This document shows, one piece after another, positions 25,870-29,725 of a stretch of DNA of 64,000 bases (positions are counted from its first letter, which is position 1; the number at the start of each line of letters is the position of its first letter). The translations under genes were made by a program, and so were the position numbers. This DNA is from Flaccisagitta enflata (taxonomy: Eukaryota): positions 39,990,001 through 40,054,000 of the forward strand of contig OZ231126.1 of NCBI GenBank assembly GCA_965153355.1, in the 5' to 3' direction. Below the pieces are notes generated by a model. The model made no database searches. It saw nothing but the letters and a program-made list of their open reading frames with translations, and was not told the origin of the DNA.

Positions 25870-27580
25870 ATGCCATCGCGCGCGCAGCGTCTTCAGGCCG
25901 AAATGGATTCGTCGATGGCGGGTGGATCATTTGATCTCAATCGTCTGATGGCGTCTCCAGAGCGGGATGAAGACTTCGAGACGGATTCCGTCGCGTCGCT
26001 GGAGGATGTGGTGGAGGCGGCGACGAAAGCTGCCTTCAGCGGTGACCTCAACCTCTCCAAGGATGATGAGTCGGCAAAACTCCAACAGCCGGCCGACCCC
26101 GCTTCTTCTTCCGCTCTCCCTCCCCTCGTCATCGCCATCTCGGGAGGAAGTAACCGTAGAGTGAAGTTGAAGCAGCCTGTCGACAATGTCTCCATCGCCA
26201 ATTCGTCGTCGGGAACATCTGCCCTTCCAGACGCTTCCAATCTCATATTCACTCCTGACTTTGGTCGACCGGCTCCACTGGAGGCGAGAGCCCTTCTTCA
26301 GGAGCGTTTAAAAGCTGCAGACCATCGCAGTGGAAGGAAAGATCAAGACTCTCAGGTCAATGAGGAGGAGGCGGCAGAAGAGGAGGAGGGGATGGATGTG
26401 GTGGTGGTGGTAGAGGAAAAGGAGGAGGCGCCCATTGACCCGGAAGTGGATAAAGACTCTCCCGAGGTTAGAATCCAGCGGAAGCAAGCACGCTGGTTTT
26501 TCCATCGCAACAACCCCGCGGATGAGTCAGAGTCGTTGGTCTTTAAGGCCTTCTCCAAACTCAATTTGTGCTGCAACTCGAAGAAGCAAATGCGATTGTC
26601 GGCTACACAGTGTGGGTTAGGGTTTGAAACCCTAGATCGCAGACAAGGAAGGTAAAAGAAAAAGAGGGAGAATTTCAAGGAGGCTTGACGTGTCGTCCAA
26701 GCGTCGAGGAAGAATTTGACGACAAACACATCTTCTGCTGCAGCCGCAAACCCACCGGCGACATCTTCCACCATCGCAGCAGCAGATTGTCAAACGCGTC
26801 CGGCATTGGTTCATCCCCCAAATCAGCAGCGGCCGGATCCTCGTGACGAAACTCCCAACCCAAAAAGGCGTCGACAAGAGAAGAGGGCGCCGGCACTCGG
26901 TCCGGCGCAACTTCAACAGCAGCAGCAGCAACAACAGCAGCCGAAGCAGCAGCAACAACATCAACAGCAGCAACGGCAACAACAACAGCAGCAGCTGCAG
27001 CAACAACCTCAGCTTCAAGCCACGGCCAATTCCAAAAGCAAAGGCAAAGGCAAAAACAATAACAATAACAACATCAAAAAGAAGCAACAACTTCCTCCTC
27101 AGCAGCAGGAGGTTCCCAGCGCAGCGGCAACAGCTTCAGGTAGCGGGGGAGCAACTGTGTCTTCAACGGCGCCTGCGTCGAAGAAGGCAAAGGAGCTTAA
27201 ACAGCGGCCGGAAGCAGCAGCAGCGCAAGGGAAAGCAAAAGGCGACGTTCAGCCTCCAGCGGGCGCAAGTGGTTCTGCGGCGCCTAAACAGCAAGCTAAA
27301 GGACCATCAGCGCATCAGCAACAGGAGTTGGAGTCGCCAAACTCTTCGTCGACGGTTCTTGACACCGAGACTGGACATCGCATCAGCGAGCATCTGCTAC
27401 GCCTATGTGCGGCAACTCGGAGTAATGCCTCTAAACGCCAGTTGTCTAGACTTGCATCGTTCCTTCCGCCGACTAGAGTTTACCTATACGCTTTTTTATC
27501 CGCCACCTCTACCGGAAGTGGCAGATGAGACGCAAAAACGTATTTGGCACCAAAATGAGTTTCCCATTGGCGTTTTTCAG
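25870..27580 (+). pseudogene. Accessory ORF of the LTR element, predicted exon 1 (acidic/low-complexity, basic stretch, polyQ, then globular-looking end); unknown function
   Basis: ATG 25870 (MPSRAQRL). ORFs 25726 and 26716 are in the same frame, separated by TAA/TGA codons that are plausibly C-to-T changes. A 1-nt shift near 27333 gives RQTLRRRFLTPRLDIASASICYAYVRQLG...NEFPIGVFQ, ending at CAG|GT where coding-like composition drops abruptly to AT-rich. Confidence 0.65.
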
Positions 27581-29003
27581 GTTTTTCACTTGGCTATGAA
27601 GGAGTAGTAAGATTTAGGGAATTCATAGTGGATTTTCTGTGATCATTTTCAAAATTTTATAAAAATTTCCAGAACTTTTTTGCTAGCATCAAAAGATTAT
27701 TTTCATTTTTTACTTTTTTTTTATCAGTTTTCATATTTTTCATGTCATGATTCACTTTTCATTTTTTACTTTTCACTTTTTAATTTTCACTTTTCATTTT
27801 TTATTTTTCACTTTTCACTTTTCATTTGTTTTTTTTTTCCTTTTTATTTTTCACTTTTCACTTTTCATTTGTTTTTTTTTTTTCATTTTTTATTATTTTC
27901 ATTTCTACATTTCATTCATTACCTTTTATCAATTTTTTTCTTTTCAATGTACCATACTTTTAATAATTATGTTGTCACTTTTTTTTTCTTTTTCATCTAC
28001 ATCTAATATTTTCTACTCATAATTTTTCACTCAAATCTTTGTGATTATTTCATTAATCATATTTCATGGTTATATATATTTCACCAGTTGATTTGTTTTG
28101 ATAAAGCAGAAAATAAAGTAAAACAAATGATTGATGATTCTCCATCATGCTTATATCAAGATTGTATCATCCCAAAAGAAATGCTGAAATGAGTCTGCTT
28201 GTGAGTGTTCTCTCTCTCTCTCTCTCTCTCTCTCTCTCTCTCTCTCTCTCTCTCTCTCTCTCTCTCTCTCTCTCTCTCTCTCTCTCTCTCTCTCTCTCTC
28301 TCTCTCTCTCTCTCTCTTACTTTGCACCTGCGATAATGCCATTTCCGATTTTTGTGGACCATATGTTTTGGTTAGATCGATTCTCTGGTTACATGAAGGG
28401 ACGACGGAATAGCTCTCTATATTTCTCTCTTTATCTCTCTCTCTCTCTCTCTCTCTCTCTCTCTCTCTCTCTCTCTCTCTCTCACACACACTCTCTCTCT
28501 CTCTCTGGACAACAAAGCAAGAATATCAAAGGACCCATAGACAAGAAATCATATTTTCATGAATTGTCCTTTATTCTGTTCAAGTCTCAGATCTTGTTCT
28601 GGGTCTGTCTATCTCTCTCTCTCTCTCTCTCTCTCTCTCTCTCTCTCTCTCTCTCTCTCTCTCTCTGTAACAAAATGGAGATATCACGGTGATGCCCATG
28701 CTCTTGATAATCCTAATCCATAACTAGAAAATAGTAACAAAATTTCTATTTTCTTTTATAGTACTGTAGAAAAGCAAATGAGAACATTTAAATGAAAAAA
28801 CATCACCATGTTTTGCTCAAGTATTTTCCTAAAGAGTCAACAAAGCATCGCAGGCACTGGGAAACTCATTTCATCTTAAAGATAGTAGTAATTGTAATAC
28901 TACTAAAAAAAACGTTTAAAAGCGTTTTTTAGGCTAAAAACTCCACTTATACGCAACCTACTATGCATATAATCTCAATTATACTTCCGTTATATGCCAC
29001 TAG

Positions 29004-29725
29004 ATGATTTTGTTTGAAACTCCAAACTCTACCGCCGACATATTACAAATCATTCAGCAACGCCCAGCGGGTTGAATGTGCTCATCAGCTTTGGGACATG
29101 GCGGAAAAGTCTCGAGTTGAAACCAACATCGCGGACTCGAGAAGAAAGGCGATGATTGCGCTAGATGTGAAGGTCAAGAGCGATATGCGAGTGACGGAAC
29201 TGGAGAAACAGTTGGAGAAGGCTAAGCAAGTTGCGGATGCAAAGGCAAAGGAGGCAGCGGGATCTCAGCAGTTGGCGTCGGCGGCAGCATCTGTTAAACA
29301 CGTCCTCTGCGTGCAACAAGATCCTCGCGCCATTCTAGCTCCTGTGACTGCGACAGCGTCGTCATCTCCAGCAGCATCTGCAGAAAATGGAAGTCGGCCT
29401 TCCGTCTTGACGACTGCACAAAGCGCTAAAGACGCTCCCAAGGCAACGCCAAAGAAAAAGAGGCGTCCTTGGAATACAGGCCGCCAGCCGCAGCAGCAGC
29501 AACATCATCAGCAGCCGCCGCAGTAAGGCTGTAATTCGGTGCCACGTCCACAGTTACCATCCATCTAACTACCGTCAAGTAACGCGACGTGGAGAGCGCC
29601 ATCTCGCTGAGTCGTCGTATATTCCATCGCGACGCTCATCCCTCGATGGACAGGCCGGCATTGTCGGGGGCGCTACCCGGGGCGTGGGATTCTTATCCGC
29701 CCTGGGGCCTGGCGAAAACGCCCGC
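29004..29725 (+). pseudogene. Accessory gene, predicted exon 2 (coiled-coil-like segment, PKKKRR basic motif, Q-rich end)
   Basis: CACTAG| acceptor at 29002-29003 marks the return to GC-rich coding-like sequence; 170-aa ORF 29014-29526 (…MRVTELEKQLEKAKQVADAKAKE…); strong GTAAGT donor at 29726. Confidence 0.55.

Follow-up and report, generated by a model that had tools for sequence, protein, structure and literature searches.

A stretch of 64,000 nucleotides from Flaccisagitta enflata (assembly GCA_965153355.1, contig OZ231126.1, positions 39,990,001 to 40,054,000 of the forward strand), called the window here and used as the reference for all coordinates, contains a Bel/Pao long terminal repeat (LTR) retrotransposon. 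In this element, 5,780 bp lie between the integrase stop codon (TAA, 25505-25507) and the start of the 3' LTR at 31288. An earlier note, made from the sequence alone, had given this distance as 5.8 kb and had placed in it an accessory gene of ~740 amino acids that was not env-like, began with an ATG at 25870, contained two in-frame stops and one frameshift, and was split by an intron. The distance, the ATG and the two stops were all present as described. We found that window 25870-29526 very probably represents a third open reading frame (ORF3) of a Bel/Pao family, a sense-strand, nonenvelope gene of ~695 codons that starts 362 nt past the integrase stop, in a copy that is dead and interrupted by a transposon. 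This judgement covers the identity and anatomy of ORF3 and does not extend to its mechanism.

Features of the ORF3 locus:
15313-32195, + strand: Bel/Pao LTR retrotransposon, 16,883 bp
25508-25869, + strand: noncoding leader between pol and ORF3, 362 nt, its last ~260 nt recognisably conserved in other lineages
25870-27473, + strand: left part of ORF3, codons 1-535, with ATG at 25870 and in-frame stops TAA 26653-26655 and TGA 26686-26688
27466-27473, + strand: left copy of the target-site duplication CCGCCGAC, within ORF3, identical to the right copy
27474-29031, no strand assigned: nested nonautonomous DNA transposon, hAT-like, 1,558 bp, AT-rich with (TC)n microsatellites, inside the ORF3 C-terminal domain
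29032-29039, + strand: right copy of the target-site duplication CCGCCGAC, 8 bp, perfect
29040-29526, + strand: right part of ORF3, with what remains of the helical C-terminal domain plus the basic tail, stop TAA 29524-29526

Nested Transposon versus Intron

In the original frame, the text of the window copy halts after "...LPPT" at 27473 and continues at 29040 in the frame of 29008-29526. Joined in this way, ORF3 of the window copy comprises 1,604 + 487 nt, that is, 696 codons, and intact relatives have 692-710 amino acids, in place of the ~740 proposed before. The intact relatives read "...RLASSLPPTYYQSFSNAQRVEC..." unbroken across the interruption point; P0002 and P0004 are continuous there, and the window flanks are collinear with both and in the same codon phase. 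The interval between the two parts is flanked by the perfect 8-bp duplication, and its inverted ends (TAGAGTTT / AAACTCTA) are 8/8 complementary with no match beyond. As judged from these alignments, ORF3 has no intron and no frameshift.

The alternative is the one drawn in the earlier note, namely one accessory gene with a spliceosomal intron (donor 27580, acceptor 29004) and a frameshift upstream of the donor. A GT does follow 27580, an AG does precede 29004, and open frames flank the proposed intron on both sides. However, both splice sites sit inside the insertion 27474-29031, a gap with a target-site duplication and inverted ends at whose flanks the uninterrupted relatives join exactly; they lack the residues that the model places on either side of the proposed junction and connect 27473 directly to 29040. 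No frameshift is needed, because the original frame continues to 27473, and nothing in any relative corresponds to the shifted tail (TPRLDIASAS...GVFQ). The proposed start of exon 2, MILFETPNSTADILQIIQQRPA (MILFETPNST), is a translation of the end of the inserted transposon plus the target duplication and is absent from all relatives; the first 22 residues of that exon are an artefact. Moreover, the summed contig depth of the interval is above that of its left flank. Within the mapped interval 22000-28200, outside which site 29004 lies, reads of the poly(A) RNA run fell on the gene only in low-complexity bins, and none showed the joint. The intron has next to no chance of being real. The distal piece of that gene model (VECAHQLWDMAEKSR...QQPPQ, ending with TAA 29524-29526) was retained, as it is part of the same gene as the ATG-25870 frame. 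For annotation, the lesson is that a nested transposon in a dead copy can mimic an intron.

The insert shares with nonautonomous transposons of the hAT superfamily an 8-bp target duplication and inverted ends beginning TAGAG, and this beginning fits the YARNG start that we take to be typical of hAT ends. Unlike them, it has only 8 bp of perfect inverted repeat and no transposase remnant. We found no transposase ORF within 27474-29031, where only low-complexity ORFs occur, and no second copy of it within the window. By its duplication length and end motif, the insert fits a hAT-like nonautonomous transposon. The summed depth of DNA contigs from the source organism was 5e3-2e4 over ORF3 and rose to 6e4-3e5 at the bin containing 27474 and beyond it, and a 364-nt X2 contig matched the window only from 27472 onward.

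Two further observations were made at this place. In the DNA runs of the source organism (window 27382-28200), the summed contig depth of the insert was above that of the host gene, and because of this excess the insert probably constitutes a separate, abundant repeat family. The PPTY at the interruption point was considered as a PPxY late-domain motif and rejected, since it is not kept in other lineages.

Relatives of ORF3 and Their Conservation

The read-through of ORF3, with X at both stops, was used as the search query, and 7 proteins at E <= 0.01 were obtained among 8,000 scored candidates. P0002 (692 aa), which is intact and stands for a cluster of 92 member sequences, matched 99% of the query at 77% identity (E 1e-257), and P0006 (709 aa) and P0007 (710 aa, 87 members) matched 96-98% of it at 32-33% identity. 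A profile search of 1.84 billion representatives returned 30 matches at E <= 0.001, all of them family members or fragments of at most 703 aa, including a further intact relative, P0009 (703 aa). The intact, uninterrupted relatives are thus 692, 703, 709 and 710 aa long. Window 29040-29526, the right part, aligned with the C-terminus of P0002 at 81-82% identity.

In the alignment, both in-frame stop positions of the window copy are sense codons in the relatives. At position 26686, every contig (6 of 6 in X1, 9 of 9 in X2) has a letter other than that of the window. The two stops are private to the window copy, and neutral decay after insertion, at ~2% LTR divergence, would be expected to add one or two stops to 2.1 kb.

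Between P0002 and P0006, 264 of 620 aligned residues (43%) were identical. The N-terminal helix reached 65% identity, the basic-motif block around RP.LVHPPNQQ..PRD.TP 66% and the block EEEGM...IDPEVD...QARWYY...CC...RRVVQA 53%; the C-domain was 41% identical with 0 gaps in 113 columns, and the linkers were 23-39% identical with up to 93 gap columns. The nine sequences that cover the ORF3 C-domain fell into five groups below 60% identity. On this comparison, ORF3 is kept as an intact, uninterrupted ORF of ~700 codons in at least five sublineages. In both DNA runs of the source organism, contigs that are 90-99% alike cover each of the 8 bins of 25726-27381. With these contigs and the intact relatives in five or more sublineages, the one-off host capture that the earlier note had raised is excluded. 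Its position between pol and the 3' LTR and its retention in several lineages mark it as an additional ORF of the kind known from LTR retrotransposons, a sense-strand, nonenvelope extra gene of the element, as the earlier note had read it.

ORF3 was assigned to the Bel/Pao element because one protein, P0027 (211 aa), fuses integrase to ORF3. The N-terminal part of P0027 is a Bel/Pao integrase (Integrase_H2C2, E 4.8e-07) in which 100 of 117 aligned residues are as in the window integrase, and this part runs directly into the ORF3 C-domain of a distant lineage. P0027 has the appearance of a deletion derivative joining integrase and ORF3. An X2 contig joins 24355 to 27056. Translations of 25607-25869 are matched by the upstream read-through peptides of four relatives (P0005, P0028, P0038 and P0033), so that the leader upstream of the ORF3 ATG is recognisably conserved even in the lineage with an ORF3 of only 32-33% identity. 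A splice acceptor or an internal promoter may lie in this leader, 25607-25869. Scans for the DNA of the relatives produced 598 + 617 pattern matches in two passes over metagenome contigs of the Joint Genome Institute (JGI) and 138 in IMG/VR, and 0 were confirmed in each.

Protein Features and Structure Models

The protein was examined in the four intact relatives. Their top 19-residue Kyte-Doolittle mean was 0.77-1.32, the N-terminus was charged, 5-6 cysteines were present, and the isoelectric point was 9.6-9.8. Net charge ranged from -9 to -17 over the first 190 residues, from +19 to +23 in the middle and from +6 to +9 in the tail. These hydropathy values and the charged N-terminus, in what was a simple hydropathy test and not a dedicated predictor, agree with the view of the earlier note that the protein has no signal peptide and no membrane anchor; the acidic, basic and polyglutamine (polyQ) tracts that it listed are present too.

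An AlphaFold2 model built with 27 sequences had a mean predicted local distance difference test (pLDDT) score of 59.7 and a predicted template modelling (pTM) score of 0.39, with blocks over residues 491-610 at 92-98. Its C-terminal domain consists of a beta-hairpin, two short helices and one helix of ~85 residues (538-623). The conserved N-terminal block, modelled alone from P0015 and 13 relatives, had a mean pLDDT of 55. The protein is predicted to be acidic over its N-terminal third and basic and mostly disordered through the middle, followed by a confidently folded C-terminal domain and a basic tail, and its conserved basic clusters fit nuclear targeting.

In a joint model of two copies of residues 485-632, the interaction prediction score from aligned errors (ipSAE) was 0.49 (0.47-0.50 in three runs), and the best of three controls scored 0.00. 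The runs, in which the alignment was not used, agreed in at least 62% of contacts, with a partner pLDDT of at least 66. In benchmarks, the dimer mark was given to 21 of 30 solved one-chain pairs and 0 of 23 solved single chains; for eukaryotes it was given to 17 of 29 pairs (7 of 16 in animals), to only 1 of the 7 that lacked an older solved relative, and to 0 of 30 single chains. Residues 585/589 contacted 585/589 of the partner and residue 571 contacted 606, an antiparallel arrangement centred on the conserved ELEKQL. The models support binding of the C-domain to itself as an antiparallel homodimer, which stays a prediction.

Searches for a known family or fold gave no informative match. Pfam gave nothing at E <= 0.01 for four window pieces and nothing credible at E <= 1 for five relatives, the top rows being Lin-8 (E 0.02) and Seadorna_VP2 (E 0.3), far under their cut-offs. 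PDB sequence profiles returned only rows at E 0.98 and E 0.4. Foldseek found 0 matches at E <= 0.001 in PDB and 0 in BFVD, with about half of the model at low confidence. VIA-align in its wide search found 0 chains at Z >= 8, and its top rows were tied long-helix (coiled-coil) matches at Z 5.5-5.8 over residues 534-631. The ESM Atlas held no usable match for the C-domain or for the whole of P0009. No longer relative at E <= 0.001 was found among 8,000 candidates of 1,212-3,460 aa, which is weak evidence, and the comparison with the gag of the element itself showed no similarity (best E 0.45 and E 7). In these searches, ORF3 has no detectable relatives outside its family.

Expression Data

Read mapping covered window 22000-28200; the (TC)n repeat at 28209-28317 and the right flank of the insertion lie beyond it. 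About 6% of one poly(A) RNA run from the same organism was read (12.16 million records), and 14 reads were placed, all as partial fits at 90-95% likeness and all in low-complexity bins (26968-28002). The X9 share of the marine metagenome and metatranscriptome matches traces to polyQ and low-complexity bins and is uninformative on habitat and expression.

Possible Function and Alternative Explanations

Regarding function, we tentatively hypothesized that the ORF3 product is a nonenzymatic dimeric adaptor serving nuclear steps of replication, a possibility that we consider less likely than not. The element would make this adaptor, the basic disordered arms of the protein would bind nucleic acid or the ribonucleoprotein of the element, and the product would help the nuclear steps of replication. 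ORF3 would be expressed from a subgenomic RNA whose start or splice site would lie in the conserved leader that precedes the ATG. A more far-reaching version is rather unlikely. It describes a "complex" Bel/Pao retrotransposon in which ORF3 would be a dedicated, fast-evolving regulatory or counter-defence protein, a dimeric, nuclear, nucleic-acid-binding factor that acts against host silencing or activates the element itself, with its own subgenomic transcript arising in the conserved leader.

Several points weigh against these readings and against parts of the gene assignment. The intact relatives may be genomic or transcript contigs, and the comparison of integrase with ORF3 hangs on one contig product, P0027, that is possibly chimeric. 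In the part of the poly(A) RNA run that was read, no reads fell on the rest of ORF3 or on pol within the mapped interval, and metatranscriptome contigs (X9), which span 22027-25526 (pol and integrase), miss ORF3 beyond polyQ at 90% likeness. In the AlphaFold2 model, 358 of 692 residues have pLDDT < 50. Long single helices pair readily in models, and for this reason the dimer of the C-domain is only a prediction. The proposed mechanism itself was inferred from composition and architecture.

Three other origins or roles were weighed against a nonenvelope gene whose product acts as an adaptor. A degenerate envelope, derived from a fusogen as in other Bel/Pao elements and stripped of its signal peptide and anchor, would account for the env-like position between pol and the 3' LTR and for a long C-terminal helix such as fusion cores have; single-helix rows of paramyxovirus F were among the tied coiled coils (Z 5.6). 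However, all four intact relatives, from two lineages, are without hydrophobic segments and have only 5-6 cysteines, no Pfam fusogen family appeared at E <= 1, and neither PDB nor BFVD gave a Foldseek match at E <= 0.001. The helix was modelled as an antiparallel dimer and not as a trimeric hairpin, and the protein is basic and mostly disordered. An envelope is thus very improbable. Capture from a host gene, either only in the window copy or already at the base of the family, has documented precedents, since retrotransposons capture foreign ORFs (PMC5408684). The polyQ and low-complexity composition of ORF3 is host-like as well. In contrast, the many related copies and sublineages exclude a one-off capture, all 30 profile matches are family members, and no longer or differently built relative appeared among the 8,000 candidates of 1,212-3,460 aa (weak evidence, as said), which makes such an origin improbable, with a small probability left to an ancient capture from a gene that the databases do not contain.

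The third possibility concerns the role of the protein, which could be a fast-evolving counter-defence or transcription regulator, like the accessory genes of complex retroviruses, and not a structural helper. Between the same two lineages, integrase kept 100 of 117 residues (85%) vs 29 of 73 columns (40%) for the ORF3 C-domain; moreover, the gene is lineage-restricted and without outside relatives, its basic clusters are conserved, and its N-terminal region is acidic. Nevertheless, weakly constrained disordered linkers are also expected to change fast, the contrast with integrase comes from a single and possibly chimeric product, and reads of the poly(A) RNA run lay on ORF3 only in low-complexity bins of the mapped interval. 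We consider a regulator a minority option, less likely than the adaptor proposed above.

The Host Element

Other features of the retrotransposon:
15313-17020, + strand: 5' LTR, a direct repeat with 31288-32195, holding a nested insertion like a miniature inverted-repeat transposable element (MITE) at ~15634-16405
17666-21607, + strand: gag-like frame of ~1,313 codons, with an in-frame TAG at 18848-18850, from the ORF list
21632-25507, + strand: pol in broken frames, with protease, Pao peptidase_A17 region and integrase with DUF5641, stop TAA 25505-25507
29721-30506, no strand assigned: second nested insertion, in the 3' untranslated part, with a MITE-like element at 29830-30397 that has 35-bp inverted ends and a 20-nt satellite core
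31288-32195, + strand: 3' LTR, with the purine-rich tract AAAAATGGGGCAGAG at 31273-31287 immediately upstream

The two LTRs were 98.5% alike over 615 nt and 97.8% alike over 321 nt, and a 5-bp target duplication, GTCAT, was present on both outer flanks (15308-15312 and 32196-32200). In pol, Pfam recognised Peptidase_A17 (window 22753-24081, E 2.1e-24, 86.8 bits vs a cut-off of 22.3), and in the integrase region it recognised DUF5641 (E 7.2e-21) and Integrase_H2C2 (E 5.3e-09), both above their own cut-offs; the rve core of integrase scored 25.1 bits, under its cut-off of 32.6. By these domains, pol belongs to the Bel/Pao group. Most other genomic copies have one extra base behind 22655 (5 + 3 contigs in X1 and 5 + 3 in X2), and this one-base difference in length is a pol frameshift private to the window copy. 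The gag-like frame has a Q-rich N-terminal extension (~700 nt of CAG/CAA, polyQ, coiled-coil-like) followed by two zinc-knuckle motifs, and no Pfam match was found for 17666-21607. At ~1,313 codons, it is unusually long for a Bel/Pao gag. With a TAG within gag, pol split over several frames and ORF3 broken, the window copy is dead. An Rfam search of window 15000-32500 gave 0 matches.

The second nested insertion consists of the MITE-like copy 29830-30397 and, on either side of it, a perfect 109-bp direct repeat made of retrotransposon sequence (29721-29829 = 30398-30506). This MITE-like family, with inverted ends of about GGGCAGCGGCCCC(A/G)AAGGG and a 20-21-nt satellite core, was seen at least five times in the window, at 29721-30506, 15634-16405, 17154-17600, 13533-13660, 9940 and 47686-48950. 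A duplication of ~26 bp flanks the copy in the 5' LTR. Such long and variable flanking duplications are odd for a MITE-like element with inverted ends, and we have no explanation for them. Starting ~120 bp past the 3' LTR, a tandem array of 14-nt units occupies 32318-32930 (45 overlapping 201-nt matches with 14-nt spacing).

Comparison with Known Systems

The comparisons in this section draw on portions of the cited papers. Bel/Pao elements are described there as gag-pol elements of 4.2-10 kb, a few of them with env (PMC3118150). Third genes of the superfamily include an F-like protein in Drosophila Roo and Chuviridae-like and gB-like glycoproteins in mosquito BEL elements (PMC13524379). ORF3 shares with these envelope-like ORFs the superfamily, the sense strand and the position from integrase to the 3' LTR. 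Unlike them, it is without signal peptide, anchor or fusogen match, and its protein is predicted to be basic, mostly disordered and helical-dimeric. We found no description of a nonenvelope third gene in Bel/Pao elements in these portions of the literature, a scope outside which the supplements of PMC3118150, covering all elements and families, lie.

Extra genes that are not env are known from other LTR retrotransposons. Like the Bel/Pao ORF3, the ORF3s of bdelloid rotifer elements are family-specific, lie downstream of pol and are not env. The Juno, Vesta, TelKA and Mag clades are Ty3/gypsy-like. It is these clades, and not Bel/Pao, that carry the rotifer ORF3s, whose types are GDSL esterase, DEDDy exonuclease, coiled-coil and transmembrane and which are typically separate transcription units with spliced messages (PMC5408684). 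The named types are enzymes or membrane proteins, in contrast to the Bel/Pao ORF3, which has neither an enzymatic nor a membrane signature and resembles no named family. In plants, the additional ORFs (aORFs) of LTR retrotransposons are lineage-specific and of a function described as not known (PMC7264820, PMC11963269). They resemble ORF3 in their location in a long internal region from pol to the 3' LTR, a likeness by description only, and they belong to Ty3/gypsy and Ty1/copia elements, unlike the Bel/Pao host of ORF3. The accessory proteins of complex retroviruses include the 3'ORF of snakehead retrovirus and regulators of the Tat/Rev type (PMC12193657). Such proteins may be compared with ORF3 as the small-domain, basic, nonstructural products of an extra gene 3' of pol, in a functional analogy only; they have no homology to ORF3, which at ~700 aa is much larger.

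Our results extend the lineage-specific extra genes of LTR retrotransposons to the Bel/Pao superfamily. In this family, ORF3 has remained open in sublineages with only a third of their residues in common. It also offers a testable protein, with a confidently folded C-terminal domain that is predicted to dimerise and with several short conserved motifs.

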